From: Lentisphaerota bacterium
GTDB taxonomy: Bacteria; Verrucomicrobiota; Lentisphaeria; Oligosphaerales; PUNB01
DNA: 40,606 nucleotides
NCBI GenBank assembly: GCA_003552565.1
Contig: PUNB01000062.1
Span: 1 to 40,606 of the forward strand
Reading direction: 5' to 3'
Part shown: one piece after another, positions 138 through 40,527 of the stretch
Layout: every line of letters begins with the position of its first letter
Numbering within the stretch: position 1 is the stretch's first letter
Program-made: the position numbers and the translations under genes
The notes under the pieces: model-generated
What the model saw: only the letters and a program-made list of their open reading frames with translations
What the model was told of the DNA's origin: nothing
The model's database searches: none

Positions 138-367
138 GTCTCTCCCTCGGGGTATCCGGCGCTTCGCGCCGGCGGTTGGACTTGTATGGGACTTCGTCTC
201 GGTGATCGGTTATCAATCATCCGAGTACCGTAATCGTACACGTACTCGTACACTCAAATCTTCGGGGTCAGAAATAATGACGATTAGCGTGACGAGTATG
301 TGTAAAAGTACGTAGAGTCTCACCCTTCGGGTTTCAGGCGCATCGCGCCGGGAGCGGTTCTTGTATG
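138..367. repeat. Mosaic repeat cluster: core palindromic element (138-195), GTACGAGTAC-type hairpin (about 215-316), second core element (317-367)
   Basis: About 90% identical by eye to 39802-40054 in the same orientation. The core is 'GTCTCTCCCTCGGGGTATCCGGCGCTTCGCGCCGGCGG..GG.CTT.TATG.GAC'. Confidence 0.9.
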
Positions 368-1234
368 CAAAACAACCAAACAATTGTCTGGGAGGATGAT
401 GCATGGAAAGCGGTCTGTCTGCCGAAAGACGGAGCCCGCCTTAGCGAACTGTCGTATGAAGGCCAACCTCTGTTGACACCGGTGCCGGAGGATTTTTCGC
501 CGCCTGAGGAAGATTTCGGCGAATATGAACTCCGTCCGGTTTACGGCTATGACGATTGTTTTCCCACTGTCGATCAATGTACTCATCCCCAAAGCCGCGT
601 CGTAATTCCGGATCATGGAGAATTGTGCTGGCAACAATGGCAAGTGCGCTCGAATTCCGACGGCTTGACGGCTGAAACACGGCTAAACGGCTATCCCCTG
701 TGTTTCCAGCGGAAAATGATCTTCTCCTCGACGCAACTGACCTGGCAATGGCGGGTCGAAAATCCGGGATCCGCAGAATACTTCTTTATCCACGTCATGC
801 ATCCGTTGCTGCCGCTGGATCAAATATCGCATATCTCCCTGCCGCCCCATTCGCATGTCGTTGATGAAGAAGCGGATTGCCGGTTCCCTGTCAGCGGAGC
901 GACGGAAGTCGCCGACTTTCTCATGCGTTCAGCCAGAGACCGCGCATACATGCTGTTACTGAAGGATGTCAGCGAGGGACAAATTTCCTGGCGATATCTG
1001 AGCGGATTGAAAATAACCTCCGTGTTTTCCACTGAACAATTCCCAACCGTCGGAATCTGGTGGAACCCCCAGGCGCATCCGCCGGAACCAGGGAAACAAA
1101 GAAATGAGTGCGCTTTGGAACCAATTCCGGGCGCCGCCAGCAGCTTGGATAAATCATACCGGCAAAATTGCTGTATGACCGTGCCCGCTCATGGCGAATT
1201 GTCGTGGCGAGTGATTTGGAATCTTGAAAAATAA
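365..1234 (+). CDS. Aldose 1-epimerase-like (galactose-mutarotase fold) protein
   Basis: 289-aa ORF. The pattern 'GYDDCFPTV...IPDHGELCWQQWQV' resembles the 'G.P.LFP...HGF.R...W.V' sugar-binding pattern of the aldose-epimerase superfamily. It sits directly upstream of a class II aldolase. The assignment rests on motif recollection only. Confidence 0.5.
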   Translation: MQNNQTIVWEDDAWKAVCLPKDGARLSELSYEGQPLLTPVPEDFSPPEEDFGEYELRPVYGYDDCFPTVDQCTHPQSRVVIPDHGELCWQQWQVRSNSDGLTAETRLNGYPLCFQRKMIFSSTQLTWQWRVENPGSAEYFFIHVMHPLLPLDQISHISLPPHSHVVDEEADCRFPVSGATEVADFLMRSARDRAYMLLLKDVSEGQISWRYLSGLKITSVFSTEQFPTVGIWWNPQAHPPEPGKQRNECALEPIPGAASSLDKSYRQNCCMTVPAHGELSWRVIWNLEK

Positions 1235-1251
1235 AGCGAAAGAAACCCATT

Positions 1252-2256
1252 ATGCCCTTAATTACCGACAAACAGCAGGTTCTGGATATCTATGCCTGGG
1301 CCCGCGAGAAAAAGTGGGTGGTGCCCACTTTCTGCTCAGAAAACCTGACCACTACCGAAGCCATCCTGGAAGCCGCCAGAGAAACGGGAGAAAAACTCGG
1401 TATCGAAGACATACCGGTCACCATCGCCGTCACCAACCTTTATGATCATCGCTCCCAGACGGTGAATTACACCCATTCACGCTGCTGGCACATAGGCCTG
1501 CAACTGTTTCTCAAAGACCTGGAAGTGCTGTGCGGAGAGGATTCACCTTATGGAAAACTGAAAGTGATGGTCCACCTCGACCATATTCAGCCCGATGTCG
1601 ACACTGAGTTGCTGCAGTGGGATATGAACCAGTTCTCTTCCATCATGTTCGATGCCTCCACCCGGCCTTTCGATGAAAATATCCGTATGACCGCCGACTT
1701 TATTACACAGCACGGAAAAGAAATCGTGGTTGAAGGCGCCTGCGACGAGATTATCGAAGCATCCGGCGACGCTGCCGCCGATCTGACCACTCCGGAAAAA
1801 GCCCGCCATTATGTCGACAAAACCAATGCCGACTTCATTGTCGCCAACCTCGGCACCGAACACCGGGCCAGCGCTGCGGATCTGAAATATCACTCCGACG
1901 TCGCTCGGGAAATCAAACAGCAAATCGGCACTCGGATAGTACTGCACGGCTGCTCCTCGGTGCCCGCGGAGGAAATCCGTCACCTGTTCCAGGACGGTGT
2001 CTGCAAAGTAAATATTTGGACTGCCTTGGAGCGGGACAGCTCACCGGCGCTCCTGCGAGATATGGCCGCCAACGCCGCCAAGGTCGCCGGCGCAAAAGAG
2101 GCTGAAAAGCTGCTCCGAGAAAATTACCTGGGGACCAAAGCGGACACTGCCTCCAATGCTTCGATGGCCTATTGCACAACCGCTTATCGCCAGGATATTG
2201 TCTGCCGCCGGATGAAACAAATCGCCGCCGATTTTTTCCAAATGTGGTATGTTTAG
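1252..2256 (+). CDS. Class II ketose/fructose-bisphosphate aldolase family protein
   Basis: 334-aa ORF carrying the class II aldolase zinc-ligand blocks 'VMVHLDH', 'ANLGTEHRA' and 'IVLHGCSS'. Its length is typical of the GatY/KbaY/FbaA-like family. Confidence 0.8.
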   Translation: MPLITDKQQVLDIYAWAREKKWVVPTFCSENLTTTEAILEAARETGEKLGIEDIPVTIAVTNLYDHRSQTVNYTHSRCWHIGLQLFLKDLEVLCGEDSPYGKLKVMVHLDHIQPDVDTELLQWDMNQFSSIMFDASTRPFDENIRMTADFITQHGKEIVVEGACDEIIEASGDAAADLTTPEKARHYVDKTNADFIVANLGTEHRASAADLKYHSDVAREIKQQIGTRIVLHGCSSVPAEEIRHLFQDGVCKVNIWTALERDSSPALLRDMAANAAKVAGAKEAEKLLRENYLGTKADTASNASMAYCTTAYRQDIVCRRMKQIAADFFQMWYV

Positions 2257-2260
2257 TTTC

Positions 2261-2459
2261 GCCTGCACGGGCTTATGTGAGACTTCATATATATAACCTT
2301 GTCCCGAATCCGCCTGAGGCGGATCACAAACCTGATTCCAAAGTCAAAAAACACGAGACAAGGTGCGAGACAAGGTGCGAGACAAGGTTTTTTATGCCGC
2401 AACAGTCTCTACCTCGGGGTGTCAGGCGCTTCGCGCCGTGGGCGAGACTTGTATGAAAC
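2261..2459. repeat. Mosaic repeat cluster: partial core tail, 12-nt-periodic hairpin with an inserted GC hairpin, full core element
   Basis: Collinear with 40030-40222. It contains 3 tandem 12-mers, CGAGACAAGGTG/T, at 2354-2389, and the opposing arm AACCTTGTCCCG at 2295-2306. Confidence 0.9.
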
Positions 2460-2653
2460 AATGGGTTTAATGGCCGCCATGTGATTCGCTGACTTTCAAA
2501 ACGCAGGCTTCGCCAAAATAAGACAAGATATTTTAACCACTGAGCTTCACTTATCGGCATTGATCCGATGTCCGTTCACAAACCGAATTCATTGCTTTTA
2601 GATTATAAGTGTAGATTAATGTTGATTAGTGGTTTAACAGGAATATCATCTTC

Positions 2654-3376: not shown

Positions 3377-4225
3377 ATGCCAAACACAGAACAAAAAAAG
3401 CTGCATGAACTTATATCGCGACATGTGGAAAAACTGCCGCCGATGCCAAATTCAATTGACCGGCTTCTAAGGGAAGCCGCCAATCCAGATCGCAACGAAG
3501 AAAATATAAAAGCCATCATAAAAAGTGATCCGGGACTGTGTTCTGAACTACTGCATCTGGCGGCCTGCGAAGTTCATGACAGATCCAAGGCGGCCGAAAC
3601 TCTGGATGAAGCAATAGCCCAGACCAGTCTTGATTACCTGATTGACCTGGCGGGCACCTCTTATCTCAGCCAGACCATCGAACAACAGTTCAGCGCTATG
3701 GAAAGACTGGATGAGTATTTCCGCCATTCCCGCGAGATCGCCGCCACTTGTCCTATCCTGGCCGATCTGATTGAATTGCCCAAGCATGATCGACAATTCT
3801 ATGAAATGGCCGGTGTCCTGCACGACATGGGCAGACTGATCATCGGACTGGCCCGCAACCAAACAGGCATAACCCTGATGGGGCCGGATCTAAAACAAAT
3901 GACAACCATCACGGATTACGAAAAAAACGTTATCGGCCTGAATCATTGCGAAGTCGGAGCCGATATATGCCGCAAATGGAACCTTTCAGAAAAGCTGCGC
4001 GAAGCGGTGGCAAGACACCACAGCCCTATTTTAGGGGAAGATAATTTCAGCTTCTCCGGCTCCATTCTTTTCCTGGCCCATTTCGTCGCTGGCGATGACT
4101 TCACCGGCGAAATCATCGCCCAGATAATTCCGGAAAGCCTTTTCGAACGGCTCGGATTGAACATGGAACTGTTTGATCAGGCCAAACAATTATATCGAGA
4201 ACAAACAAACAGGAAATACGCATAA
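3377..4225 (+). CDS. HDOD domain-containing signalling protein
   Basis: 282 aa. It has an N-terminal 'LPPMPNSIDRLL....IKAIIKSDPGLCSELLHLA' block, followed by 'HDMGRL' and 'LNHCEVGADICRKWNL...HH', as in HDOD (HD-related output) domains. Confidence 0.75.
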   Translation: MPNTEQKKLHELISRHVEKLPPMPNSIDRLLREAANPDRNEENIKAIIKSDPGLCSELLHLAACEVHDRSKAAETLDEAIAQTSLDYLIDLAGTSYLSQTIEQQFSAMERLDEYFRHSREIAATCPILADLIELPKHDRQFYEMAGVLHDMGRLIIGLARNQTGITLMGPDLKQMTTITDYEKNVIGLNHCEVGADICRKWNLSEKLREAVARHHSPILGEDNFSFSGSILFLAHFVAGDDFTGEIIAQIIPESLFERLGLNMELFDQAKQLYREQTNRKYA

Positions 4226-4226
4226 A

Positions 4227-4763
4227 ATGGCAGAGATCATTAAAGGAAAAGCCTACGTAGTGGGCGACAACATCGACACCGATCAGATTATCCCGGCTCA
4301 ATATCTGAACCTGGTGCCTACCATCCGGGAAGAGTATGACAAACTCGGAAGTTACGCCCTCTCAGGACTGCCGGAGGGCTATCCCCACTTCGTTCCCCCC
4401 GGCCAGACGAAAACCCCCTACAAGGTAATTTTTGCCGGGCGCAATTTCGGCTGCGGCTCCAGCCGGGAACACGCTCCGGTTTGCCTGGGAGCCGCCGGCG
4501 CCCGAGCAGTCGTTGCTGAATCCTTCGCTCGGATTTTTTTCCGCAACTGTATCGCCACCGGTGAATTATATCCGATTGACGCAACCGAACGTCTATGTGA
4601 AATGATCAAAACCGGAGAAGACGTGGAACTGGACCTTGAACAAAACACTCTGAGAATCCCCGCCCGCAACATAACCATTGAAACCCAGCCATTGGGAGAT
4701 GCCCGTCAGGTAATCGAGCACGGCGGGCTGTTTAACCACGCCAGAAAGACCGGTATGATCTAA
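4227..4763 (+). CDS. leuD: 3-isopropylmalate dehydratase small subunit-like protein (short LeuD/HacB type of the aconitase family)
   Basis: 'MAEIIKGKAYVVGDNIDTDQIIPAQYL' and 'AGRNFGCGSSREHAP' are aconitase swivel-domain motifs. I chose the ATG at 4227 (the track ORF begins at 4173) because the homology starts there and it immediately follows the upstream stop at 4225. Confidence 0.85.
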   Translation: MAEIIKGKAYVVGDNIDTDQIIPAQYLNLVPTIREEYDKLGSYALSGLPEGYPHFVPPGQTKTPYKVIFAGRNFGCGSSREHAPVCLGAAGARAVVAESFARIFFRNCIATGELYPIDATERLCEMIKTGEDVELDLEQNTLRIPARNITIETQPLGDARQVIEHGGLFNHARKTGMI

Positions 4764-4819
4764 AGAAAAGAACTGTACCGCGGTTGAGCAAGCGGATATT
4801 GCTAAAGCAGTACGGGACT

Positions 4820-5383
4820 GCGGAAACCTGAAAGCTGAAGGCTGAGGAAAAGCGGGAAACTCGCTGGTCGCAAGTCATAATCCGTATCTTTAATATGTAA
4901 TGCGTAATGGATGGGACGGCGGGGGGAGAGGAATGTATCATAGTGTGTAAGTCGCTGGTCGCGTGTCGCTAGTCATAATTCTTGATCTATAATGCGCAAT
5001 GGATGGAACTACGAGACTGCAATTTTATGAGGCCTGTGGAAGTTTCTATTAAAAATTACACAAGCGTCCCATGGGATGCGTTACTACACTTTGTCTCGCA
5101 CCTTGTCTCGCACTTTGTCCAACTGCCTTCTCAAAACCAAACAAGTACTCGACAAGGCGCGAGACAAAGTGCGAGACTAGGTTTCATTTTATGTGCGTGT
5201 AATGGCCTCACACCCCTTTTCGCATACCCTCTAGTTACGGCTCGACATGCGAGAACGGTGTACGAGTTGGCGCAATCGTAATCCGCTCTCGTCACCCGCT
5301 AATAACGACGAACGAAGCACGATGAACGACGAACCGTGTTTCGAACAAGCCCGACCCTTGGCGCAAGGCCGAAAAGGAACCGG
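4820..5383. repeat. Mosaic repeat cluster with several module types
   Basis: It contains a ~55-bp direct duplication (4861-4915 and 4952-5007), a CGAGACAAGG-type hairpin (5089-5183) and a 'CTTTTCGCATACCCTCTAG' module (5213-5236). An AACGACGAACGAAG module (5301-5342) is identical over 42 nt to 39150-39191. A degenerate core element abuts the ribD stop. Confidence 0.85.
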
Positions 5384-6421
5384 TCAAAAATCTCCCGTCA
5401 CCAGCAGGTCTTCGCCTATCCTCCTTGCGCGCATATTTTTCAGTTTCCAGGCTTGTTCCAGTGATACCGGATCATCCCCGCCCACCGCCGGACGACTGGA
5501 GCGGCCGCCAAGAATACGTGGAGCAATAAAGAACATAGCCTGATCAACTATACCGGCGGCCAAAACCGCCGCCGCTAACTCTCCTCCGCCTTCCACCAAT
5601 AAGGCCGTAATATTCTCTTTCCCCAGGTCTCGCATACAATTCCGCCACTCCTGCTTGTCGCCGGGCGCTATCAGCCGCGGGGGGGTTTCAGGATCCCGCC
5701 ACAATTCCAAGTCTCGACTGAAATTCTGACTGCGAGAACAGATTATCGGCATCGGCTGCCGTTCCCAATCAGCCGGTTCCCTGACTTTCAAACGCGGATT
5801 ATCCCGGCGAACTGTTTCGCCCCCCACCATGATTGCGTCCGCCCAGCGTCGCTGTTTCTGCACCAGGCGCCGGGATTTCTCCCCGCTGATCCATTTCGAA
5901 TCACCACCAACAGTGGCAATCCGTCCGTCAAGAGTCATCGCCAGTTTCAGGATCACAAAAGGGCGTTTCTCGCACACCCAGCAGAAGAAAGCCTCATTCA
6001 ATCTTCGGCATTTCTCTTCCTCCACCCCACACTCCACCTGTAATCCCGCCTCTCGCAGTATACTCAGGCCGCGGCCCGCATGTCGGGGATCCGGATCTTC
6101 ACAGCCCGCCACAACCCGTTTAACTCCGGCGGCCTTAATCGCTTCCGTACAGGGAGAAGTCCGACCGCGAGTGGAACAGGGTTCAAGATTAACATAGAGC
6201 GTCGAACCTTCAGCTCTCTCTCCGGCCTCCTTCAGGGCCGCGATCTCGGCATGACTCTCACCGGCCCGACGATGATATCCCTCTCCAACCGTCGCGCCAT
6301 TCCGCACCGCCACCGCGCCCACCATCGGATTGGGGCTGGTGCGCCCCCAGCCTCGGCGCGCCAGAGACAAAGCCCGCCGCATATAACGACGATCCAACCG
6401 CAATTTTTCCGGCTCCGACAT
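5384..6421 (-). CDS. ribD: Bifunctional riboflavin biosynthesis protein RibD (pyrimidine deaminase / uracil reductase)
   Basis: CDA zinc motifs 'HAEIAAL' and 'PCSTRGRTSPC', followed by a C-terminal RibD reductase domain ('LKLAMTLDGRIA', 'LLVEGGGELA'). Confidence 0.93.
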   Translation of the reverse strand: MSEPEKLRLDRRYMRRALSLARRGWGRTSPNPMVGAVAVRNGATVGEGYHRRAGESHAEIAALKEAGERAEGSTLYVNLEPCSTRGRTSPCTEAIKAAGVKRVVAGCEDPDPRHAGRGLSILREAGLQVECGVEEEKCRRLNEAFFCWVCEKRPFVILKLAMTLDGRIATVGGDSKWISGEKSRRLVQKQRRWADAIMVGGETVRRDNPRLKVREPADWERQPMPIICSRSQNFSRDLELWRDPETPPRLIAPGDKQEWRNCMRDLGKENITALLVEGGGELAAAVLAAGIVDQAMFFIAPRILGGRSSRPAVGGDDPVSLEQAWKLKNMRARRIGEDLLVTGDF

Positions 6422-10249: not shown

Positions 10250-10521
10250 TCGCTTAAGTGTATCCGAGCAAGGGCAGCGGCGAAGAAAGCGATTAAGTGT
10301 ATTTGAACGCCTCTCTCTAAACACTTCAGCATCCTCTTAACCCCACCCTTCGTCTCACCCTTACTTGGTTACGCTTAAACCACTATCTTTATCGGTCAGT
10401 GGGCGACAAACATTCGCGACAAGGTTCTAGACAAGGTTAGGCCTATCCCATGGGATGTTGTGAATTTGCCCTGACACCTGAAAACTGACACCTGAAAACA
10501 CGAATCTCACATAATCCCGAA
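10250..10521. repeat. Mosaic repeat cluster between the kinase 3' end and plsY
   Basis: It contains 'CGATTAAGTGTAT' modules, a half arm 'CGCGACAAGGTTCTAGACAAGGTT', the palindrome 'TCCCATGGGAT' (also at about 5068) and the tandem 'CTGACACCTGAAAA' x2. A truncated core tail 'TCTCACATAA' abuts the kinase stop. Confidence 0.8.
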
Positions 10522-24097: not shown

Positions 24098-24099
24098 GC

Positions 24100-28456: not shown

Positions 28457-28496
28457 AATCAACTCATGCCGCGCTGTGGCGCGGCATGAGTTGATT
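28457..28496 (-). terminator. Probable intrinsic terminator of the GSMT-SDMT operon
   Basis: Perfect 18-bp stem (AATCAACTCATGCCGCGC / GCGCGGCATGAGTTGATT) with a 4-nt loop, 5 nt beyond the SDMT stop. On the minus strand it is followed by a moderately T-rich tract (CATCTATTTATT). Confidence 0.5.
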
Positions 28497-28501
28497 ATCT
28501 G

Positions 28502-29338: not shown

Positions 29339-29340
29339 AA

Positions 29341-30135: not shown

Positions 30136-30438
30136 AATTTCCTTTCTTCGTTTTTTGTGAATACTATCAACCCGCTGAAATCCTTGTCGAATAAAATATT
30201 CGGACTTCGCCGGCCATTTGCAACAGCCGCAACTTTAACTCAGAAGGGGCCAGTACCGGCGAAAGCTGTGTATCGCAGGCAAAAGCTTTTACACTATAAC
30301 CGATTAAAAAGTTTGCAAGAGCAAACTGGCAAAATTGATCGTCAATAAAGATTTTGCAATTGGCTTTCATATAGAGTATAGTAATATCCACAACCATATT
30401 GACCAAGTAAACCGCCTGTTCGCAAGCGTCAAAAACCC

Positions 30439-31815: not shown

Positions 31816-31891
31816 ATTAAAACAACAATTTCACCGTGATCTTCACGGCTGATTATTTATACTGGAACAGTCAACCACTAGGCCAATAAAC

Positions 31892-32179
31892 ATGAAATGG
31901 ACTGATTATCTTTTTACCGTTTTGTTTGTTATCATCCTGTCGGGCACTTTCTTTATTCTGATCCCCCTGCATACTGAATACCACAGAGCCCGCCAAGAGA
32001 AAAGAGAGCTGCGACAGGAACTGCTCCAACAGGAACTTCGGGCGCATCAGCTGCGGCAGGAATTGCGGGCTTTGCGCAACGATCCGGCGACAGTCGAGCG
32101 CATAGCTCGGGAAAAACTGGGATGGAGCCGCGAAGGAGAAACAATATATCACTTTGAATACACCGAGGAGGAAGAGTGA
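31892..32179 (+). CDS. ftsB: Septum formation initiator FtsB/DivIC-family protein
   Basis: 95 aa with an N-terminal transmembrane segment, a leucine-zipper-like coiled coil and the 'ERIAREKLGWSREGETI' tail typical of FtsB. Confidence 0.7.
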   Translation: MKWTDYLFTVLFVIILSGTFFILIPLHTEYHRARQEKRELRQELLQQELRAHQLRQELRALRNDPATVERIAREKLGWSREGETIYHFEYTEEEE

Positions 32180-32182
32180 GTC

Positions 32183-32818
32183 ATGGGGAGCGATGGTGTC
32201 GAAAAAAACCCGCCGCCTGTTCGCAAACTGACCGCACCTTTGCAGGAAGAAGAAGTTAGAAAACTGCACGCCGGTGATTTTGTTGATTTAAGTGGGCAAT
32301 TGTTAACTGCCCGAGACGCGGCTCATAAAAGACTGGCGGCCGCAGAGGAACCGCCGGTTTCCATGCAGCGGAGCATTATATACCATTGCGGTCCAGTAAT
32401 CCTGCCTGACACCGCCGGAGGCTGGCGTATCATTGCCGCCGGCCCAACCACCTCCAGCCGTGAAGAACCCTATATGGCGAATATAATCAGCTCCCTGAAT
32501 CTGCGCATGATCATCGGCAAAGGCGGCATGGGCAATTCCACCCTGGACGCCTGCCGTCGCTGCGGATGCGTTTACGCGCACGCCGTCGGCGGTGCGGCGC
32601 AAGTTCTGGCACAGCTGATTAAAAACGTACAGGGCCCGTTCTGGCCTGAAGAAGGATTGTCGGAAGCAATCTGGAAGCTGGAGGTGAATCATTTCCCCCT
32701 GGTTATCACTATGGACAGCCACGGGAAAAGTATACACTCCGAAGTGAAAACCTACTCAGCCGAGAAACTGACGCGGCTGAAAATGACTCAGCCGTTCAGT
32801 GAACGGCCTGATTATTAA
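32183..32818 (+). CDS. Fe-S hydro-lyase beta-type subunit (FumA C-terminal / TtdB family)
   Basis: 'L.AGD.V.LSG.LLTARDAAHKRL', 'IYHCGP' and 'IGKGGM' are class I fumarase/tartrate dehydratase beta-domain motifs. Confidence 0.8.
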   Translation: MGSDGVEKNPPPVRKLTAPLQEEEVRKLHAGDFVDLSGQLLTARDAAHKRLAAAEEPPVSMQRSIIYHCGPVILPDTAGGWRIIAAGPTTSSREEPYMANIISSLNLRMIIGKGGMGNSTLDACRRCGCVYAHAVGGAAQVLAQLIKNVQGPFWPEEGLSEAIWKLEVNHFPLVITMDSHGKSIHSEVKTYSAEKLTRLKMTQPFSERPDY

Positions 32819-32841
32819 AGCAGGAGAAGGAAACTTAATTT

Positions 32842-33828
32842 ATGAATGAACCCCCGAAAAAACGCGTTTTGTCCGGTATCCAGCCTTCCGGAAGATTGCA
32901 TCTGGGCAATTATTTCGGCATGATTAAACCGGCCGTGGAACTCCAGAATCAAGCCGACAATCAATGCTTCTATTTTATTGCCGATTACCATGCCTTGACG
33001 CAGCTTCCCGACCCTGAACAATTGCGCAGCCACAGCCTGGAAGCGACTCTGGATCTGCTGGCCTGCGGTGTCGACCCGGAGAAAACGGTGCTTTTCCGCC
33101 AGTCCGACATTCCGGAAATCCCCCAGTTGACCTGGATACTGAGCTGTCTCGCCCCGCTCGGACTGCTGGAACGATGCCACAGCTATAAAGACAAAATCAG
33201 CCGCGGATTCTCACCCAACGCGGGACTATTCAATTACCCTGTCCTAATGGCGGCTGATATCCTCGCTTACAATTCTGATTTGGTGCCGGTCGGCAAAGAC
33301 CAGAAACAGCACTTGGAAGTTACCCGCGACCTGGCACAGAAATTTAACTGGCAGTATGGCGATGTACTGGTCGAACCGAAAGCACTGATCCGGGATGAAA
33401 CAGCGGTGGTGCCGGGAATAGACGGCCGGAAAATGTCTAAAAGCTATGATAATTTCATTGAATTATTTGGCCGCGATAAAACCATTCGAGAAAAAATCAT
33501 GCGAATACAAACCGACTCCACTCCCTTGGAAGCGCCGAAAGATCCAGACAAATGCAACGTGTTCGCTCTTTATAAACTGCTGGCTTCTCAAGAGGAAATG
33601 GAAGAAATGCGGGCGGCCTATCTGAAAGGGGGGCTGGGATATGGACATGCGAAAAAAGCGCTGCTGGAAAAATTCCAGGAATACTTCGCCGCTGCCCGCG
33701 AACGGCGTCAGGAACTGGCGCGAACTCCGGAAAAAATAGAAGAAGTCCTCCAGGAAGGCGCCAAAAAAGCCCGAAAAACCACCACAACGGTTCTGGAAAA
33801 AGTACTCAAAGCAATAGGTATACGATGA
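32842..33828 (+). CDS. trpS: Tryptophan--tRNA ligase
   Basis: 'GIQPSGRLHLGNY' (HIGH region), 'GKDQKQHLE' and 'KMSKS'. Confidence 0.93.
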   Translation: MNEPPKKRVLSGIQPSGRLHLGNYFGMIKPAVELQNQADNQCFYFIADYHALTQLPDPEQLRSHSLEATLDLLACGVDPEKTVLFRQSDIPEIPQLTWILSCLAPLGLLERCHSYKDKISRGFSPNAGLFNYPVLMAADILAYNSDLVPVGKDQKQHLEVTRDLAQKFNWQYGDVLVEPKALIRDETAVVPGIDGRKMSKSYDNFIELFGRDKTIREKIMRIQTDSTPLEAPKDPDKCNVFALYKLLASQEEMEEMRAAYLKGGLGYGHAKKALLEKFQEYFAAARERRQELARTPEKIEEVLQEGAKKARKTTTTVLEKVLKAIGIR

Positions 33829-33878
33829 TTCCCCGCCATGCACGCCAAAACAGACCGGAAAATTCCCGCAATTCGCCG

Positions 33879-34397
33879 ATGAACGCGGCGATCGGACTCG
33901 GCGCAAACCGTGAAAAACCTAAACAGACCATTTTAAAAGCGGTGGACAAACTGCGACAATCCGGATTCGCCGACATCCGCTTGTCATCGTTTTATCTGAC
34001 CGAACCAGAAGACTGCCGTCCCGGCACTCCGGACTTTGTCAACGCCGCCGTTGTCGGCCTATGGCCCGCCTCTCCGGAAGAACTGCTTGCCGCCTGCCGA
34101 AAAATAGAACGGGAACTAGGCCGACCGGCGGAGCATGCCAAAGACGAAGCCCGAACCATTGATTTAGATATCCTGATGTTCGATGACCAATATTTACATA
34201 CTGAATCCCTGCGGGTTCCGCACCCCTTGTTGACAGAGCGGCTTTTTGTTTTAACCCCTCTGTCGGAAATTGCCGGCGACTGGATAGTGGGGAAAAACGG
34301 CATAAAAAAGAGCGTCAAGGAGTGGAAGAAAACCCTGAAAACAAACAACCCGGATGCCGTCGGCAAAGTGCGTTTCCTCTGCACAGTTTGCGGCTAA
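33879..34397 (+). CDS. folK: 2-amino-4-hydroxy-6-hydroxymethyldihydropteridine diphosphokinase
   Basis: 'IGLGAN', 'RTIDLDIL' and 'L.VPHP.L.ER.FVL.PL.EI'. The ATG at 33879 was chosen because the homology starts there; the track ORF starts at 33825. Confidence 0.88.
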   Translation: MNAAIGLGANREKPKQTILKAVDKLRQSGFADIRLSSFYLTEPEDCRPGTPDFVNAAVVGLWPASPEELLAACRKIERELGRPAEHAKDEARTIDLDILMFDDQYLHTESLRVPHPLLTERLFVLTPLSEIAGDWIVGKNGIKKSVKEWKKTLKTNNPDAVGKVRFLCTVCG

Positions 34398-34523
34398 GCC
34401 GGAGCAAATCATTGCAGTATATAATATTATGAATAAATTTGATGGATTTTAGGGCTTTACAGGCAGGATTTTTATCAAAAATCAGCATTTTAACGACAAT
34501 CTAAAAAAATCCCGGAGATTGAC

Positions 34524-35285
34524 ATGCCCAGAGCATCTAGATATCTGAAAGAAGGGTACCTTTACCATCTGACGCATCGCTGTTCGGACGGTGAATTCTT
34601 TCTTCGCTTCGCCAGAGAACGGGACGCTTACCGTGAGTGGCTGCGTACAGGGGTTAATCGTTATAAGGTCTCAGTGCTAGGATATGCAATCACCTGTAAT
34701 CACACTCATGTGGTTGTCGATGCAACTGATCGGTCCGCTGTGGCCGACATGATGAAATTGGCTTCAGGAGTCGTCGCTCAATCCCTGAATCAGCGCAAAG
34801 GACATGAAGGCTCTGTGTGGGAACACCCTTACCAGTGTACTCGCATAGAGAGTGGTGCTCATCTTCTTAATTGTCTGCGTTACATCGACCTAAACATGGT
34901 CCGGGCAAGAAAGACGGAACACCCGGGTCAATGGCGCTGGTGCGGATATGACGAACTTGTCGGAAAACGCAGGCGCTACCGGATAATCGACCAAGAACGA
35001 TTGTTGGCGCTTGCAGGATTCGCTTCCAGTCGTGCTTTTGCCGAGTATTATGCGACCAGTGTCAGCGACAAACTGGAACGGCATCGCCAAGTACGGGAAC
35101 CTTATTGGACAGAAGCGGTTGCGGTTGGCAGTAAGGAGTTTGTCGAAGATGCCGGGGAAGCCGTTGCTCATCGGCGGCGGATGCATCATTATAAAATCGA
35201 CATTGAAGCTGAGGAGAACTTGTGGGTCGTTCGGGAATCATCTGTCCCTTACAGCTCTGCTTTTGGGGATAAATCAGCCTTCTAA
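34524..35285 (+). CDS. rayT: REP-associated tyrosine transposase-like protein (Y1 HUH transposase, IS200/IS605 TnpA superfamily)
   Basis: The 253-aa size is typical of RAYTs. The HUH motif is 'NHTHVVV' (H60-T-H62) and the catalytic Tyr context is 'LRYIDLNMVRA' (Y120). There is no tnpB partner and no IS terminal structure nearby. Confidence 0.75.
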   Translation: MPRASRYLKEGYLYHLTHRCSDGEFFLRFARERDAYREWLRTGVNRYKVSVLGYAITCNHTHVVVDATDRSAVADMMKLASGVVAQSLNQRKGHEGSVWEHPYQCTRIESGAHLLNCLRYIDLNMVRARKTEHPGQWRWCGYDELVGKRRRYRIIDQERLLALAGFASSRAFAEYYATSVSDKLERHRQVREPYWTEAVAVGSKEFVEDAGEAVAHRRRMHHYKIDIEAEENLWVVRESSVPYSSAFGDKSAF

Positions 35286-35526
35286 GCTATTACACGGCCT
35301 TCAGAAAAACTGTAAACATCTTTATAACAGTCACTTGCTATGGCTTATCCGCAAATGGTACAAACTTTTTCGCACGGGAGCATCGGTTAAGCTTACCGGG
35401 TGAGGGTGGCGGTTAAGAAAACGATTAAGCGTATTGCAGAGTAAAGCTTCAACCACACTTCGCCCCCCACGCCAAGCATTCAAACAAAAATTCAGAATCA
35501 ACGAACCTCGTGTTTGCCCTCGCCTT

Positions 35527-38500
35527 CTACTCCAGCAGAGTGCGCAGTTCATCCGCGCTCATTTTGCCAAGAGGCACAGAGGCCTCTGATTCAGTGTCGG
35601 CAACCAGGTTTTCAAACAGTTCAGACTTGTGTTTCTGCATTGCCAGAACTTTATCCTCAATTGTGTCGGCGGCCACCAAACGATAAGCGACAACACTTTT
35701 TGTTTGGCCAATTCGGTGAGTACGGTCAATAGCCTGATTTTCCACTGCCGGATTCCACCAGGGGTCGAAAATAAAAACATAATCAGCCTTGGTCAGGGTC
35801 AAACCGGTGCCTGCCGCTTTCAGACTGAGAAGAAAAATTCCGGCATCTTCACTTTGGTTGAAATCGCGCACGATTTCACTACGTTTCTCAACAGGAGTTG
35901 AGCCGGTGATCATCCAGGCAGGCAGTCCTTTCGCAGTTAAGTCGGCCTCGATCAGCTTCAACATGCGGACAAACTGGCTGAATACAAGGATCGAATGTCC
36001 CTCCGCCAAAAGTTCCTCAAGCATTTCCACAAGCGCATCGTGCTTGGCCGACTCCTCCACCTGATGCTTACGGTCGCGGATCAAAAGAGGATGACAGCAA
36101 GCCTGACGCAGCCGGGTCAAAAGAGCCAGCATTTCCACGGCTGTGTTGGTGTTTCTGGCCTGCTCCCGGGTTTCTTCCAGCAGCTGATCATAGAACTCTC
36201 TCTGCGACTCTGACATTTCCACGCGAATAACTTCGTCGATCCTTTCCGGCAATTCCCGAGCCACCATATCTTTGGTGCGCCGCAGCATTAAAGGCGCCAC
36301 CTGTCTGCCGAGCCGCGCCGCCCGCTCGGCGCTTTCGCCGGCTTTTAGGAACTTTTCACGAGATTCAAGATATTCAGGATTGAGAAAATCCATGATCGAC
36401 CACATGTCGAGAAGACGGTTCTCCAGCGGGGTGCCGGTAAGAGCCAGCCGCTGATCGGAACGCAGACGCTTGACCGCCTGACTGACCAAGGCTTCGGGAT
36501 TCTTGATCTGCTGCGCTTCATCCAGTATGACTATTTCAAAATGAATGTTCTCCAGCAGCCTGATGTCATTTCGAACCAAGGCGTAATTGGCCACCAGCAA
36601 ATCCCAATTCCCCTGCTGTAAAACTCCCTGCCGTCTTTCCGGGGGACCTGAGAAAACAGCGCAATTTATATCAGGAGCGAATTTGGCGCATTCATCCAGC
36701 CATACTGAAGAAACCGAGGCTGGACAAACTACCAGCGCCAAGGGTTTTTCCGACCGCCGCGATGACTCGGTGTCGCGGCGGCGCTCATCCAGAACCGCCT
36801 GCAGTAAAGCCAGCATCTGCAGAGTTTTCCCCAGCCCCATGTCATCGGCAAGGATGGCTCCGATCCGGTAACGAAGACGATCGGACAGGAACTCAAAACC
36901 TTCTTTCTGATAACCCCGCATCACTGGCTCCAGCCGCGGCGGCAGGGGCAACTCTTGCGGCTCCGGCTGGTTTATTATTTCTTCATGCAGCTTTCGATCC
37001 CTGGAGGCAATCTGATATTCCACTTCTTTTGTCTGCAGATTCAACAGCAGCTTACGAGTGTCCGGCCAGAACAACCGCAGCCTGCTTCCCCTGCCGAAAC
37101 CTGACTCGCTGATTATACGCCGAATATTTTTTACTCTTTCGGCATCAAAAGTAAGCCAGTAACCAGCTTTGCTGCGAGCCACCGGCGGAGAGCGGCCTAT
37201 GGCCGCGGAAACTTCACTGTCTTCCAAGCTGGCATCGCCAGAACGCCACGACAACCGTAAATCAATAAAAACTTTGCTTCGAGCAAAAGTGAGCATCGGC
37301 TGAAGAGGAAAGTCCGGAGCCAGCAGCGGAGCCAGCTCGGATGAATAATCCTTTTTAACAGCAGCGGGAAGATGATGCCAGAATTGCAGAAATCGGCTGA
37401 CGTTTTCCATTTGCCCTCGAAGACGATAAGAATCACTGTCGCCCACCCTTATCAAAGGCAGCCGGGAAATCTCTTCCTGCACACTGGAAAGAACCGGGGA
37501 TTCATAAATGGTCAACGCCAAACGCCCGTCCTTTAACTCCCTTAATCCGCCGGTCGGAACCTTGACGCCCGGATGCAGGAAAGCTTCTCCCATTCGGAAC
37601 GAAAGCAGCACGTCCCCGCCGTCAGCGCGAGCGGACACCTCAACCGGCGACTCGGTTTCCTTTTTCTTCTGAAGAATTTCACCCTCCAGTAAATCGAACC
37701 GGTTCTGAATAAGCGTGGGCAGATATTCCTCCACCTTGCCGAGAGGGATTCCCGGCGATTTGCGAGAGAAAAAATCAGTCAAAATTTTCCAAGAAACCGG
37801 CGGAGTAAAATCAAGAATTCTGCCGTCGATTATTACCTTTTTCTTTCCTTCCGAAAGCATCTTGAAGATTTCGTGAAAATGATAGCGAGTCCCGTCCGGC
37901 AGCATTACCAAAGCCGCCACTCGAATCATACCATTTTCAGCATACACTTCAAAATGCAGTGAGCATGTTTCCGCTTCCGCTCCAAGAGGCTTTTGCGAAT
38001 CCCGCTCAATAAACCTGCCCGGCACATGGCGCCAAAGCTCCTGCCACTTGGCAAAACGGGATTCGAAGATTTTCAGGATGTTCAAGTTCTGCTCAATGCT
38101 GAGGCGAAGTTCCGGAAACTCCTCCGGTTTTTGCATTGATTGCATATATCCATAGTAATAAGGATAAGAGTAAGGAAAAGAATGGCGGCGGGTCTTATTC
38201 CGGTACTCCTGGTACAGCCATTTTAAAAATTCCCGGTCCTCTTCCGGCCACTGTTCCCGCATAACACAGCCTTGCTGGAACCTGGATCCCAGTCGCTGGA
38301 TCTCCTGCATCTTCATAAGCCTTCGGTGTTCGTCTTCAACACTGTAAAAACGAATCGCCACTCTGCCCGGCTGATAATGAAAGTCAGCCTCCACTTCCAG
38401 ACGGCGATAAACCGGCTGATCTTCGTATACAATATTTGAAGAATATTGAACTGGGGAAGAAAATAAATCAGGCTGCGAATTTCCCCCATGCTCTTTTTGC

Positions 38501-38907
38501 CGCCAGCCGCTGTTTTCTCTCGGCGGAGTCTCGGCGGACTTCTTCGGCGGCGCACCGCTTTTTTCCAAGCCTGCCTTTCCGCCGGTTTCCCAGCCTTCCG
38601 CCCGGCATACCTGCTCAAAGAGAAAAGCGGCCAGCCAGCAATGCACACAGGCAGCATCAGGATAACCGCAGGTGCATGAACGGCGCCATGTCTCTCCATC
38701 AAAACTCCAGACCGGGCGCTGAGTTCCCAAGATAAGCTCCAGCGTTGTATCCGTCCACTCCAGACGACGGATATTTTCCCGCTGGCCGACCATTTTCGCC
38801 GTGTTGCGCACGCCGAGAGAAAACTGCCGGTCAATATCTTGCCTCACCGGCCATTGCTCCAGCCAGGGAGGCGGATTCTCTGGATAAGGAAAATTCGGTT
38901 TTTTCAT
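35527..38907 (-). CDS. SWIM zinc finger + SNF2-family helicase/ATPase
   Basis: N-terminal SWIM motif 'CTCGYPDAACVHC..' (CxC...CxH) and a ~550-aa middle region. The SNF2 motifs are 'DDMGLGKT', 'ILDEAQQIKN', 'LTGTPLENRL' and 'QAIDRTHRIGQ'. Confidence 0.88.
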   Translation of the reverse strand: MKKPNFPYPENPPPWLEQWPVRQDIDRQFSLGVRNTAKMVGQRENIRRLEWTDTTLELILGTQRPVWSFDGETWRRSCTCGYPDAACVHCWLAAFLFEQVCRAEGWETGGKAGLEKSGAPPKKSAETPPRENSGWRQKEHGGNSQPDLFSSPVQYSSNIVYEDQPVYRRLEVEADFHYQPGRVAIRFYSVEDEHRRLMKMQEIQRLGSRFQQGCVMREQWPEEDREFLKWLYQEYRNKTRRHSFPYSYPYYYGYMQSMQKPEEFPELRLSIEQNLNILKIFESRFAKWQELWRHVPGRFIERDSQKPLGAEAETCSLHFEVYAENGMIRVAALVMLPDGTRYHFHEIFKMLSEGKKKVIIDGRILDFTPPVSWKILTDFFSRKSPGIPLGKVEEYLPTLIQNRFDLLEGEILQKKKETESPVEVSARADGGDVLLSFRMGEAFLHPGVKVPTGGLRELKDGRLALTIYESPVLSSVQEEISRLPLIRVGDSDSYRLRGQMENVSRFLQFWHHLPAAVKKDYSSELAPLLAPDFPLQPMLTFARSKVFIDLRLSWRSGDASLEDSEVSAAIGRSPPVARSKAGYWLTFDAERVKNIRRIISESGFGRGSRLRLFWPDTRKLLLNLQTKEVEYQIASRDRKLHEEIINQPEPQELPLPPRLEPVMRGYQKEGFEFLSDRLRYRIGAILADDMGLGKTLQMLALLQAVLDERRRDTESSRRSEKPLALVVCPASVSSVWLDECAKFAPDINCAVFSGPPERRQGVLQQGNWDLLVANYALVRNDIRLLENIHFEIVILDEAQQIKNPEALVSQAVKRLRSDQRLALTGTPLENRLLDMWSIMDFLNPEYLESREKFLKAGESAERAARLGRQVAPLMLRRTKDMVARELPERIDEVIRVEMSESQREFYDQLLEETREQARNTNTAVEMLALLTRLRQACCHPLLIRDRKHQVEESAKHDALVEMLEELLAEGHSILVFSQFVRMLKLIEADLTAKGLPAWMITGSTPVEKRSEIVRDFNQSEDAGIFLLSLKAAGTGLTLTKADYVFIFDPWWNPAVENQAIDRTHRIGQTKSVVAYRLVAADTIEDKVLAMQKHKSELFENLVADTESEASVPLGKMSADELRTLLE

Positions 38908-39010
38908 AAACGTTGTTCTGGTTCACACATAACTTCAGAAAAGCTGATTCGGTGTGCACACACACCTAGCCGAAGATGAATAAAACTCATCCTTAAAATA
39001 CATTCAATAA

Positions 39011-39241
39011 GCTCCCATACAAGCCCGACCGACGGCGCGAAGGGCCTGATACCCCGGAACAGAAACAGCGGCGAACGAGATCGGCGACGATAACGGTAAA
39101 CGATTATGAGACTCGTCATCCGTTCTTGTCGCCGTTATCGTCAACCGCCAATAACGACGAACGAAGCACGATGAACGACGAACCGTGTTTCACATAAGCC
39201 CGACCGCCGGCGCAATGCGCCTGATACCACGAGGCAGAAAC
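39011..39241. repeat. Repeat cluster upstream of the SNF2 gene: two core elements flanking GACGATAACGG and AACGACGAACGAAG modules
   Basis: The cores lie at about 39011-39066 and 39187-39241 (minus orientation). The segment 39150-39191 is identical to 5301-5342. Confidence 0.88.
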
Positions 39242-39464
39242 ACTTTTTGAACAGAAAATCGCGAAGTTCGCTAAGAGTTTGTGATATAAAATATATTTCT
39301 TTTCGTTCTTTGCGATCTGTAAAAATTAATTTTCATGCAAAGCAGGCGGGTGCCTTTGAGTCTCCCGTCTCTCGGCTCCATCCCCGTTTCACCTGTCCAT
39401 TTCGACCCATTCCCCTTTTTATCCGTTTTCATTTTTTTTTACAGGATCCTGATTCAGGGAAATT

Positions 39465-39707
39465 TCAGCGACGGCGCACTAACAGCAAACCACTCAGAAA
39501 CACCAGCGCCAGATTATTCAAAAGCAGGAGCCAGGACATACGCGCTGCGCCAGCACTTAAACCGCGGGGCAGAAAAAATAACGACCAGCTTTCCGCCAGG
39601 CCGCCGATTCGCAGGTAGGCATATATATTCATAGAAAACAACAGAGTGATTAGACCAGCAATAATAATTCCAGGAAGCAATGTTTTCTTAGCTCTTTTTC
39701 TTGCCAT
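39465..39707 (-). CDS. Possible small two-transmembrane-segment membrane protein
   Basis: 80-aa ORF with a basic N-terminus (MARKRAKK) and two hydrophobic segments. I recognise no homology, and it may be spurious. Confidence 0.3.
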   Translation of the reverse strand: MARKRAKKTLLPGIIIAGLITLLFSMNIYAYLRIGGLAESWSLFFLPRGLSAGAARMSWLLLLNNLALVFLSGLLLVRRR

Positions 39708-39801
39708 TACAATTGTCCTTTTACTGTTAATCAGGGTTTACATTTTCAGTCTACATATAACATCACCCGCGGCTAATGTTTAAGCCACAGGCATCCGGGA
39801 T

Positions 39802-40527
39802 GCTTATGTGAGACTTCGTCTCGGTGATCGGTTATCAGTCATCCGAGTGCCGTACTCGTACACGTACTCGTACACTCAAATCTCCGGGGTCAGAAATAAT
39901 GACGATTAGCGTATACGAGTACGTGTAAAAGTACGTAGAGTCTCTCCCTCGGGGTATCCGGCGCTTCGCTCCGGCGGTCGAGATGGTGGCCGGAGCTTCC
40001 AGCTCCGGATTGTCAGGCGCATCGCGCCGGCGGCCGGGCTTATGTGAGACTTCGCGTTGTTAACCTTGTCCCGAATCCGCCTCAGGCGGATCACAAACCT
40101 GATTCCAAAGCCTAAAAACACTAGACAAGGTGCGAGACAAGGTGCGAGACAAGGTTTATTATGCCGCAACAGTCTCTACCTCAGGGTATCAGGCGCCTCG
40201 CGCCGGCGGTCGGGCTTATGTGAAACACGGTTCGTCGTTGTTCGTTTTATATCAGTGTTAATCAGTGTCCATCCGTGGTTCTAATAAAAAAATTGCGGCG
40301 TGAATGAGGACAGATTTAAGTGTACGAGTACGTGTACGAGTACGGGAAATGCTGCGGTATCGTTATACGGTTTCGTACTCGTACACCTACTCGTACACGC
40401 AAATCTTTCGTATCCTGCCTGCTGCCCCGAGGGAGAGACTTGTTGAATGTGTCACCTGAACACTGAAACCTGAAACCGCGAAGTCTCACATAAGCCCTAC
40501 CGCCGGCGCGCGGCGCCTGATACCCCG
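39802..40527. repeat. Densest mosaic repeat cluster (~725 bp, no credible CDS)
   Basis: Module order is a core tail, a GTACGAGTAC hairpin, a core doublet with a CCGGAGCTTCCAGCTCCGG insert (39939-40053) and a 12-nt-periodic hairpin (40063-40156). Then follow a core (about 40165-40222), a CGACGAACG module, a TCCGTGGTTCTAATAAAAAAA module, a GTGTACGAGTAC hairpin (40320-40398), a CACCTGAACACTGAAACC module and a core (40473-40527). Confidence 0.9.

Follow-up and report, generated by a model that had tools for sequence, protein, structure and literature searches.

A head-to-tail mosaic of hairpin modules with a conserved 12-nt joint, a possible site-specific integration site, between the genes of a Lentisphaerota bacterium

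The assembly of bacterial interspersed mosaic elements (BIMEs) and of Neisseria intergenic mosaic elements (NIMEs) is still unclear, although both have been known for decades. In NIMEs, the short inverted repeat dRS3 alternates with more than 100 families of RS modules of 20-200 bp, some of which have 5-bp terminal inverted repeats; the arrays also hold insertion sequence (IS) elements, the GC contents of dRS3, RS and genome are 55.8%, 45.2% and 51.6%, and in 2007 NIMEs were reported as unseen outside Neisseria. Repetitive extragenic palindromes (REPs) are recognized by a GTAG (or GYAG, GTRG or GTGG) or CGTC tag and by a 20-40-bp palindrome with a 6-13-bp stem, head-tail dimers being rare (Di Nocera 2013). 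IS elements of the IS1111 group, in turn, encode a bridge RNA in their right end. Here we analyze the intergenic repeats of a 40,606-nt stretch of a Lentisphaerota bacterium (contig PUNB01000062.1, hereafter the window), in which a preliminary description made from the sequence alone had recognized a ~55-bp palindromic element, the core, fused to several kinds of hairpin module. On balance, we lean towards reading these repeats as a NIME/BIME-like mosaic whose joint is a site-specific integration site, that is, a DNA landing pad and not an RNA signal.

The arrays are made of one repeating unit, in which a 12-nt joint, CTTRTRTGARAC, is followed by a long-hairpin module and then by GTYTC and a tail of about 38 nt (CCCTCGGGGTATC, a GC hairpin of 5-7 bp and GGCGGYCGGG). 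Units are chained head to tail, neighboring cores within an array being co-oriented. The '55-bp core' is therefore the tail of one unit plus the joint of the next, a conserved junction region of a DNA-level mosaic and not an element in its own right. This follows from the behavior of its ends, which are independent within the core and linked across the module. Namely, core position 3 (C/T) shows no association with position 53 (G/A; odds ratio 1.08, p=1.0), the latter being strongly associated instead with the opening bases of the next module (p=3e-6), and the GARAC of the joint agrees with the next GTYTC across the module in 25 of 30 cases (14 G-C and 11 A-T; odds ratio 25.7, p=6e-4). Inverted termini of 5-7 bp (GTGARAC / GTYTCAC) bracket the modules and co-vary. 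In addition, about 35 joints, each at the head of a module, have no other part of the core before them; in the diverged type-2 population described below, the 12-mer CTTRTRTGARAC also comes after other tails; and array-terminal cores retain CTTGTATG with a degenerate last pentamer, as expected if GARAC belongs to the following module.

These repeats are far more frequent than expected by chance. The central hairpin GGCGCNTCGCGCC, with at most one mismatch, has 12 matches in the window against 0.58 expected, a number reached by none of 100 shuffles, and the 12-mer joint occurs 11 times exactly against 0.04 expected. For counting, the literal consensus was replaced by an nhmmer profile made from the clear core copies, which recovers nine full singlet cores (~55 nt), two doublets (24350-24460 on the minus strand and 39940-40050 on the plus strand) and fragments at 5338-5369, 26943-26965, 40417-40439 and 24550-24567 (minus) and 2268-2283 (plus). 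Isolated joints lie at 28152-28163 and 39803-39814 (plus) and at 27313-27324 (minus), and a degenerate joint at 10504-10519 (minus). Altogether, at least 19 core copies or fragments, at least eight of these pieces being fragments, are spread over nine gaps of the 40.6 kb, each of them intergenic and in one or the other orientation. The gaps are flanked by Pfam-supported housekeeping genes, encoding aldolase, thymidylate kinase, RibD, MurA, GpsA, ThiI, a TrpS/TyrS-type synthetase, an SNF2 helicase and others.

Most of what the preliminary description had reported at this level is borne out: a recurring element of ~55 bp with at least 14 copies, in both orientations and always between genes, at coordinates that are correct within a few bases; a junction 'TCTCACATAAGCC' to the hairpin modules; and copies truncated at stop codons, which correspond to a 3' core piece starting 2-19 nt past a co-oriented stop in five gaps of the window. 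The 55-nt consensus that it quoted is a fair one, the nearest copy (40172-40226) differing at five positions, but the literal string is absent at up to three mismatches. Similarly, a central hairpin and GTCTC/GAGAC ends do exist, but only a 5-bp stem is consistent and the pentamers are not partners of each other, so that the idea of a self-contained GTCTC...GAGAC palindrome had to be given up. As to described RNA families, Rfam gives no match in the whole window at gathering thresholds, and in permissive mode only matches of 23-31 bits between GTACG hairpins and animal miRNA models (cut-offs 85-100). The features of the window that belong to these arrays are as follows.

138-192, plus: full core, GTCTC with GC-hairpin tail and joint CTTGTATGGGAC, followed by a GTACG hairpin unit (nhmmer 55.0 bits).
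193-316, plus: GTACG hairpin module, 124 nt, between the joint at 181-192 and GTCTC at 317 (94% to 39803-39912).
317-371, plus: full core at an array end, final pentamer degenerate (CTTGTATGCAAAA; nhmmer 47.1 bits).
2268-2283, plus: array head, a 3' core fragment with joint CGGGCTTATGTGAGAC, the joint 15 nt past the aldolase stop.
2284-2404, plus: module B, 121 nt, with a AACCTTGTCCCG arm, a CCGCCTGAGGCGG hairpin, three GAGACAAGGTGC repeats and a ...TATGCCGCAACA end (89% to 40035-40227; TRF period 12; unit fold z=-2.8).
2405-2459, plus: full core at an array end (nhmmer 54.9 bits).
5083-5192, no strand: two 12-nt tandem arrays (GAGACAAGGTGC type) in inverted orientation that make up a long hairpin, with no core attached (TRF).
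5283-5337, minus: CGACGA-type module after the degenerate core at 5338-5369 (87% to 39132-39218).
5338-5369, minus: degenerate partial core with altered stem (GCCTTGcgcCAAGG), 14 nt past the ribD stop (nhmmer E=0.0018).
10467-10503, minus: TGACACCTGAAAAC module, period 14 (TRF).
10504-10519, minus: degenerate joint CGGGATTATGTGAGAT, 2 nt past the Ser/Thr-kinase stop, in a 342-bp gap.
24350-24460, minus: doublet core, with its 5' part, duplicated GC hairpin and inserted GGCTGGAGCTtccAGCTCCGG hairpin (84% complementary to 39939-40058).
24461-24549, minus: module B, shorter copy.
24550-24567, minus: array head GCCGGGCTTATGTGAGAC, the joint 19 nt past the stop of an HhH-GPD gene.
26682-26780, minus: module-B-like piece, ACCTTGTC 12-mers with a CGCCTCAGGCGG hairpin (TRF).
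26841-26942, minus: long GTACG hairpin module (91-92% to 40312-40449).
26943-26965, minus: 5' core fragment GTCTCTCCCTCGGGGTAGCAGGC fused to the GTACG hairpin (nhmmer E=0.004).
27078-27210, minus: inverted 12-mer arrays and then a TGAAAC-type module, 3' of the core at 27211-27267.
27211-27267, minus: full core whose hairpin has 2 additional nt in the 5' arm (nhmmer 48.5 bits).
27268-27312, minus: short CGACGA/AACACCGAACATTG module, 45 nt.
27313-27324, minus: array head, joint CTTATGTGAAAC, 17 nt past the stop of a DUF4168 gene.
28152-28163, plus: isolated joint CTTATGTGAGAC heading a module, no core upstream.
28164-28230, plus: TGAAAC-type module, 67 nt.
28231-28283, plus: full core with degenerate termini, antisense to both neighboring genes (nhmmer 45.7 bits).
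39013-39066, minus: full core at an array end, upstream of the SNF2 helicase start codon (nhmmer 47.6 bits).
39067-39186, minus: long hairpin module of the CGACGA type, 120 nt, with GAAAC...GTTTC as closing pentamers (fold z=-1.9 and -2.3).
39187-39241, minus: full core (nhmmer 56.3 bits).
39803-39814, plus: isolated joint heading a GTACG unit.
39815-39939, plus: GTACG hairpin module, 125 nt, closed by GAGAC...GTCTC (z=-4.8 and -5.6; 0 of 200 shuffles as stable).
39940-40050, plus: doublet core (nhmmer).
40051-40171, plus: module B, whose first 11 nt, TTCGCGTTGTT, equal the right-end terminus of the L097 IS110-family element.
40172-40226, plus: full core, the top-scoring copy (nhmmer 61.3 bits).
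40227-40262, plus: truncated CGACGA-type module.
40312-40416, minus: long GTACG hairpin module, with only far-sub-threshold miRNA hairpin matches in Rfam.
40417-40439, minus: 5' core fragment fused to the GTACG hairpin (nhmmer E=0.54).
40440-40482, minus: TGAAAC-type module, 43 nt.
40483-40537, minus: full core (nhmmer 52.6 bits).

The conservation of the core is not that of a folded molecule. Across 54 distinct copies, five pairs of the stem are nearly invariant, being paired in 93-100% of cells, and a sixth forms in 6 of the 54; this 5-bp stem is the only part that is consistently palindromic. No compensatory change was found in the stem among these copies, its sole variation being the replacement of the loop-closing C-G pair by U-G in 17. 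The majority of the conserved bases of the 55-nt unit lie outside the palindrome, and the unpaired stretches GGGGTATC and GGGCTTRTRTG are conserved at least as strongly as the stem. The preliminary description had named folding energies no better than shuffled controls as a result that would refute it, and single cores indeed show no excess stability over dinucleotide-shuffled sequences on either strand (z from -1.7 to +1.6). We discarded a stem spanning the whole core and closed by GTCTC/GAGAC, which gains no energy and shows no covariation.

Structure is predicted to reside in the modules, not in the core. The modules come in several interchangeable hairpin kinds of 40-125 nt, whose arms are tandem oligomers with a period of 12 or 14 (Tandem Repeats Finder, TRF), and they are bracketed by GARAC...GTYTC, a pentamer stem that closes the hairpin in most predicted folds. 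Whole-unit folding gives z values of -4.8 and -5.6 for the GTACG unit, -1.9 to -2.8 for module B and -1.9 and -2.3 for the CGACGA unit, and of about 0 to -1.1 for short units. Cores and modules also differ in composition (GC 0.64 and 0.46, with 0.52 for the window). In the doublets, the GC hairpin is present twice in direct orientation, with a third hairpin inserted between the two copies; for these three-hairpin sequences a tRNA-like cloverleaf or tmRNA-like identity was rejected, ARAGORN finding no gene, and an origin from plasmid or phage was dropped after blastn gave no match. No variable target-site duplication is discernible at the modules, because their junctions always carry the same joint sequence.

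Some module sequences lie outside this grammar. Core-free gaps of the window (18280-18307, 19138-19180 and 19613-19640) hold module pieces, namely a CCGCCTCAGGCGGATC hairpin and ACCTTGTC 12-mers, so that modules are found away from joints too. Contig L094 (labels of this form denote our related contigs), from a more distant genome of higher GC content without cores, has long periodic-arm hairpins (GTCACGAAGTCATG...) at 1400-1515, 4110-4230 and 4945-5065, which are akin to a core-adjacent module in L003; hairpin modules of this kind may predate core and joint and be more widely distributed. Contig L025 has a ~50-nt sequence, AAAAAATCTTTGCGTTCTTKGCGACCTTCTGTTAAAAATGTGTTYCATGAG, twice (520-570 and 866-920), one copy being followed by a core and the other by unique DNA, and sequences resembling 'TTTGCGATCT..GTAAAAA' come after cores both in the window (39290-39330) and in L097.

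What occupies the place of a module in related contigs suggests a use for the joint. Among 122 open reading frames (ORFs) next to arrays, the only recurrent mobile-element family is an IS110-type transposase, a DEDD recombinase of 461 aa (PF01548 and PF02371) encoded in L048, L070 and L085. With cores read forward, the element (L070, 214-1925; L085, 1529-1825; L097, 1547-3272) exactly fills the module slot, as ...CTTATGTGAGAC, then the IS, then GTCTCTCCCTCGGGG... (GTCTCTCC...), the outer contexts being different; we write its target as CTTATGTGAGAC/GTCTCTCCCTCGGGGTATC, and also as CTTATGTGAGAC/GTCTCTCCCTCGGGGTAT. This placement recurs in at least eight different contexts (L048, L070, L085, L097, L098/L099 and L100-L106), and IS homologs with 95%, 76% and 67% identity from other samples show the identical arrangement. 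The 67% lineage is present in several copies, whose right-hand contexts are of at least three kinds, and is flanked by a third type of core. Modules and IS have identical junctions (GAGAC/TTCG... and ...A/GTCTC), and the right-end terminus of the IS, TTCGCGTTGTT, is also the first 11 nt of module B at window position 40051 and at L017 6613. Near-empty slots occur as well, in which the joint is followed by ACCGGT and then GTTTC. As far as these contigs tell, the slot between joint and GTYTC is used for site-specific integration, and the notion of a 'docking unit' put forward at the outset can be sharpened accordingly to a junction that accepts one or another module or, in relatives, an element of the IS110 family.

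The right end of the IS, of 230-310 nt as against ~100 nt for the left end, includes a ~150-nt non-coding block that is conserved across lineages, has no match among Rfam models and is a candidate bridge RNA. Within this block there is a segment, CTCCCC-N8-AATC, and in all three IS lineages its 8-mer is the same as that following GTCT in the flank: CACATAAG in lineage 1 (L070, L048, L097), CATACAAG in lineage 2 (L098, L099) and CATACGAG in lineage 3 (L100-L106). Hence three of three substitutions are mirrored between the guide-like segment and the flank. In the RNAalifold prediction, this segment belongs to a long stretch without pairing, which an invariant CCGGG/CCCGG stem encloses. The lengths of the two ends and the position of the block are in accord with the IS1111 group.

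The core family is not confined to the window, which is the sample of its source genome, the relatives being represented by short contigs broken at repeats. More than 65 further copies were found on ~50 contigs of related Planctomycetes-Verrucomicrobia-Chlamydiae (PVC; Lentisphaerae-like) bacteria, outside copies of the kind that the preliminary description had proposed to look for, and its picture of a lineage-specific, dense, intergenic and modular family is upheld. By MurA, the source organism falls among deep Lentisphaerae-like PVC bacteria; its nearest relatives have 71% identity and the named matches are Lentisphaeria metagenome-assembled genomes (MAGs), and a MAG at this 71% carries one core copy. 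A Logan contig is identical to window positions 262-2317, both of its ends breaking inside repeats. A pattern scan of species-representative genomes returned 23 loci, of which only three have full-length copies, with several modules in common at 80-95% identity and beside unrelated genes; the other 20 are chance matches to the GC hairpin in GC-rich genomes. A metagenome scan gave 41 true loci with 57 copies, mostly within ~150 bp of contig ends, which fall into a close group and the diverged type-2 group, the latter from a lower-GC population and having an extra GG in the 5' arm of its hairpin. Taken together, these sequences indicate a core family that is lineage-wide and evolving. Insertion is indicated by the conserved Ser/Thr-kinase-plsY-gpsA-murA cluster, in which the kinase-plsY gap measures 342 bp and is filled with repeats here, compared with 18 bp or an overlap in relatives.

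Three core-bearing contigs, L003, L017 and L020 (PUJZ01000081, PUOM01000143 and PUMP01000008), come from one sediment sample, whose label, B1-Sed10, could not be confirmed in the main text of the soda-lake paper. They are assigned to the MAGs of a Methanomassiliicoccaceae archaeon, a Halomonas sp. and a Nealsonbacteria bacterium. Three such unrelated MAGs from a single sample suggest mis-binning, and these contigs probably derive from a PVC bacterium. Other sequences in the window stand apart from the core family. A 33-35-nt tandem repeat of ~6 copies (unit CCGCGCGGGCGTTCGCCGCCCTTGGCCCCTAGTTA), unrelated to it, fills the thiI-GH3 gap at 16501-16716, with two further CCGCGCGGGCGTTCGCCGCCCTTGGCCCCTAGTTA copies downstream of the GH3 gene at 14491-14637; an unannotated small ORF of ~82 codons with hydrophobic stretches (~39460-39708, minus strand) lies between two repeat arrays; and a strong 18-bp hairpin at 28457-28496 (minus strand), distinct from the repeats and just downstream of the methyltransferase gene at 28502-29338, is the best terminator-like call in the region.

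The window also encodes a Y1 transposase, which the preliminary description had not remarked on, at 34524-35285 on the plus strand among housekeeping genes, with 253 aa and a Pfam Y1_Tnp score of 31 bits against a cut-off of 23. Its top NCBIfam match is the REP-associated tyrosine transposase (RAYT) at 54.8 bits, with an equivalog cut-off of 80, compared with 16.9 for IS200; the HUH motif and the catalytic Tyr helix are intact. The protein has more than 560 length-conserved homologs in PVC bacteria, and an ortholog with 78% identity is present in a related MAG that also has a core. An inverted palindrome, GCGGCT(A/T)AGCCGC, brackets the gene at 34387-34400 and 35342-35355 and is found in four genomes; as GCGGCTAAGCC it occurs twice in the window, the flanks being otherwise unique. 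Gene and flanks are conserved in L091, L093 and L094, at non-syntenic positions, and in a relative the conservation extends beyond the ORF despite different neighbor genes. No core lies beside the Y1 gene in the window, L091, L093 or L094. By its sequence context, the gene matches the 'TIRYT/TIRtron' class (Di Nocera et al.) and not a REP-flanked RAYT. A second Y1 gene, 43% identical, is located in L017 at ~500 bp from three cores, inside its own repeat-bounded unit and with cores on one side only. This gene encodes 191 aa and, at 4597-5944, is surrounded by a 28-nt repeat, GCGGGTCAGTCCTCTAATTT..., with two copies in direct and one in inverted orientation, and ~5640-5900 holds an antisense fragment of another Y1 gene (CLMTNHIHIHL); next to its core array, the region gives the impression of a hotspot for Y1 elements.

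How well do other explanations account for these observations? The preliminary description had considered roles in 3'-end stabilization or termination, and an RNA-level function of this kind, with cores or modules transcribed as stabilizers in 3' untranslated regions (UTRs), as processing sites, terminators or inter-operon insulators, seems to us very improbable. Every copy is intergenic, and five window arrays begin 2-19 nt past a co-oriented stop codon, as such a role would have it, but of ~32 isolated joints outside the window only 3 are found at 45 nt or less from the stop of a long co-oriented ORF, and there the cores show no preferred orientation with respect to the nearest ORF upstream or downstream (14/27 and 24/47, p=1). 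The stop-codon proximity in the window is thus read as arrays filling the available intergenic space, and placement in sense-strand 3' UTRs was ruled out. Arrays sit between tandem, convergent and divergent genes, and also upstream of or antisense to genes (28231; 39013-39241). The modules are very stable predicted hairpins, and REPs and BIMEs are known to stabilize upstream mRNA; at the cores themselves, however, folding is at the level of shuffles, none of 35 terminator-like sites in 20607-40606 overlaps a core, and the hairpin is followed by GGCGGTCGGGCTT and by no T-run. The change of the loop-closing pair to U-G preserves pairing on one strand only, as would suit an RNA, yet compensatory changes are absent and unpaired bases are as conserved as the stem. 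The lack of both strand bias and terminator features points to an element acting at the DNA level. A second reading, also foreshadowed by the proposal that the repeat is a substrate of a Y1 transposase, is that of a REP/RAYT system, in which cores would be REP-like palindromes cleaved and dispersed as single-stranded DNA by a Y1 (HUH) enzyme, the gene at 34524-35285 being the candidate. We rank it low, as improbable. The RAYT-like protein with its intact motifs, its ortholog in a core-carrying MAG, the proximity of the L017 Y1 gene to three cores, and the density of the core as an intergenic GC hairpin with conserved unpaired flanks all speak for it. Nonetheless, the candidate falls below the RAYT equivalog cut-off, no core adjoins it, and its flanks carry a different palindrome, in a layout of the TIRYT/TIRtron and not of the REPtron kind, so that it was rejected as the mobilizer of the cores; the sequence to set against single-stranded core DNA as a substrate of the Y1 protein is GCGGCTAAGCCGC DNA. 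The L017 gene, for its part, belongs to its own repeat-bounded unit, and the core lacks the sequence tag and the inverted doublets of REP systems, as detailed below.

More weight is due to an account in which the joint is a passive target. Under this main rival, the mosaic was made by an unrelated or extinct mechanism (another transposase, homologous recombination at joints or replication slippage) and the IS merely homes in, while the repeats may also have been recruited by the host, for instance to promote recombination as NIMEs would or to bind nucleoid proteins; we regard it as somewhat unlikely. IS110-family elements are known to home into existing REPs, so the IS may simply parasitize an abundant repeat that spreads by another route. 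Most module families have no terminus in common with the IS, the periodic 12-/14-nt arms might serve as serial binding sites for proteins, a host-level role in recombination has been proposed in the NIME literature, and a sequence at L017 6362-6600, tried as a deletion derivative of the L085 IS, shares with it only a 38-nt hairpin. What a passive target does not account for is that module B opens with the same 11 nt as the IS right end, that modules and IS have identical junctions, and that no other enzyme recurs near the arrays in the 122 neighboring ORFs. The landing-pad reading has its own difficulties, and the following points weigh against it. The window, in spite of its many arrays, holds no IS110-family gene, and the link to the IS rests on related contigs; no fully empty slot, with the joint abutting GTCTC (CTTRTRTGAGAC directly followed by GTCTCNCC), was seen among them. 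For one IS copy taken alone, 9% of shuffles produce an 8-mer match, and the guide-like 8-mer becomes persuasive, at the sequence level, only once the three lineages are compared; of a second segment (ATACCYC), one of three changes is mirrored in the other flank. The two segments lie 4 and 11 nt from the junction in the same sense, unlike the left and right target guide (LTG/RTG) rule of IS621, and the putative RNA is represented by only five sequences, among which its stems do not vary and hence offer no proof by covariation. Finally, the concordance across modules could come from the copying of whole units and not from base-pairing, which bears on a structural role and leaves the unit boundary supported.

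In the landing-pad reading, joint and tail would be recognized by a sequence-specific recombination system, arrays would grow and be reshuffled through integration into, or recombination between, joints, and the family would persist in intergenic space as selfish or neutral DNA. A more specific version, which we consider unlikely, takes the hairpin modules as non-autonomous cargo moved in trans by IS1111-type bridge-RNA recombinases into the pad of joint and tail. Each insertion would then regenerate the landing pad, so that arrays would extend themselves, and the conserved unpaired bases of the core (GGGGTAT, CTTRTRTG) would be explained as sequences read by the guide RNA. If true, this would be, as far as we know, the first natural family resembling miniature inverted-repeat transposable elements (MITEs) to be spread by bridge recombination, and a NIME-like mosaic outside Neisseria. 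Should the link with the IS be incidental, these repeats would be one more lineage-specific family. In either case, this lineage offers an unusually legible mosaic, with a universal 12-nt joint, few hairpin modules and an IS110-family element in the slot that tracks the joint sequence, which makes it testable whether the target site of a programmable recombinase is where mosaics are assembled and what keeps them uniform; for study, it also provides a natural multi-copy landing pad together with a candidate IS1111-type guide RNA. On the practical side, the repeats fragment assemblies and seem to cause mis-binning, as in the archaeon, Halomonas and Nealsonbacteria MAGs.

Compared with known systems, NIMEs are the closest analog in design, with no homology. 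In both cases, a short conserved element with inverted termini alternates with diverse intergenic modules, and GC content alternates with it, here with 63.6% in cores, 45.9% in modules and 51.9% in the window. The dRS3 sequence itself, ATTCCCNNNNNNNNGGGAAT (ATTCCCN8GGGAAT), has two matches in the window at up to two mismatches, against 2.49 expected, neither of them in an array. Moreover, the conserved piece is longer here (a 12-nt joint plus a ~43-nt tail that includes the GC hairpin) and directional, long periodic-arm hairpins serve as modules, and the host is a PVC bacterium. With REPs and BIMEs these arrays share dense, extragenic, GC-rich hairpins, a limited set of linker motifs arranged in mosaics, and a role as insertion targets of IS110-family elements, described for IS621 and ISPpu9. 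However, the REP-like reading of the preliminary description does not hold with respect to the hallmarks of that class. The core has neither GTAG nor CGTC, carrying GGGGTATC(M) 5' of the stem and a GTAT whose fourth base is T in at least 90% of the 54 copies; CGTC or GACG is absent from the foot of the core stem on both strands; and the repeat flanks no cognate RAYT. As to size, the stem has 5-7 bp within a conserved stretch of 55 nt. Cores follow one another head to tail, whereas BIMEs alternate in orientation and head-tail REP dimers are rare, and the linkers are hairpins of 40-125 nt where BIMEs have short motifs.

The doublets, likewise, are direct duplications, unlike the two inverted REPs that make up the single long hairpin of a REPIN. 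The length-conserved, single-copy-like Y1 HUH gene flanked by inverted palindromes resembles the REPIN/RAYT/TIRYT arrangement, as in the 'TIRtrons' of Di Nocera et al., but the palindrome that flanks it is unrelated to the core and undispersed in the window. The likeness to IS110/IS1111 elements such as IS621 and ISPpu9/10 lies in a DEDD recombinase element (PF01548 and PF02371) at one exact position of a repeated intergenic sequence, in relatives, and in a long non-coding right end with a conserved, putatively structured block, a predicted loop segment of which matches and co-varies with the target; it concerns the IS that uses the slot, not the core itself, and the pairing register is unlike that of IS621. 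Pneumococcal BOX elements are composite intergenic elements with few module types and hairpin potential, in the fixed order A-(B)n-C and with no known universal joint, and we know of no link between them and IS110. BOX shares with the present arrays the design of modular, composite, MITE-like intergenic hairpin repeats, the fixed order being found in BOX and the universal joint only here. By analogy, we would therefore file these repeats as a NIME/BIME-like mosaic in a PVC lineage, with a grammar of its own.

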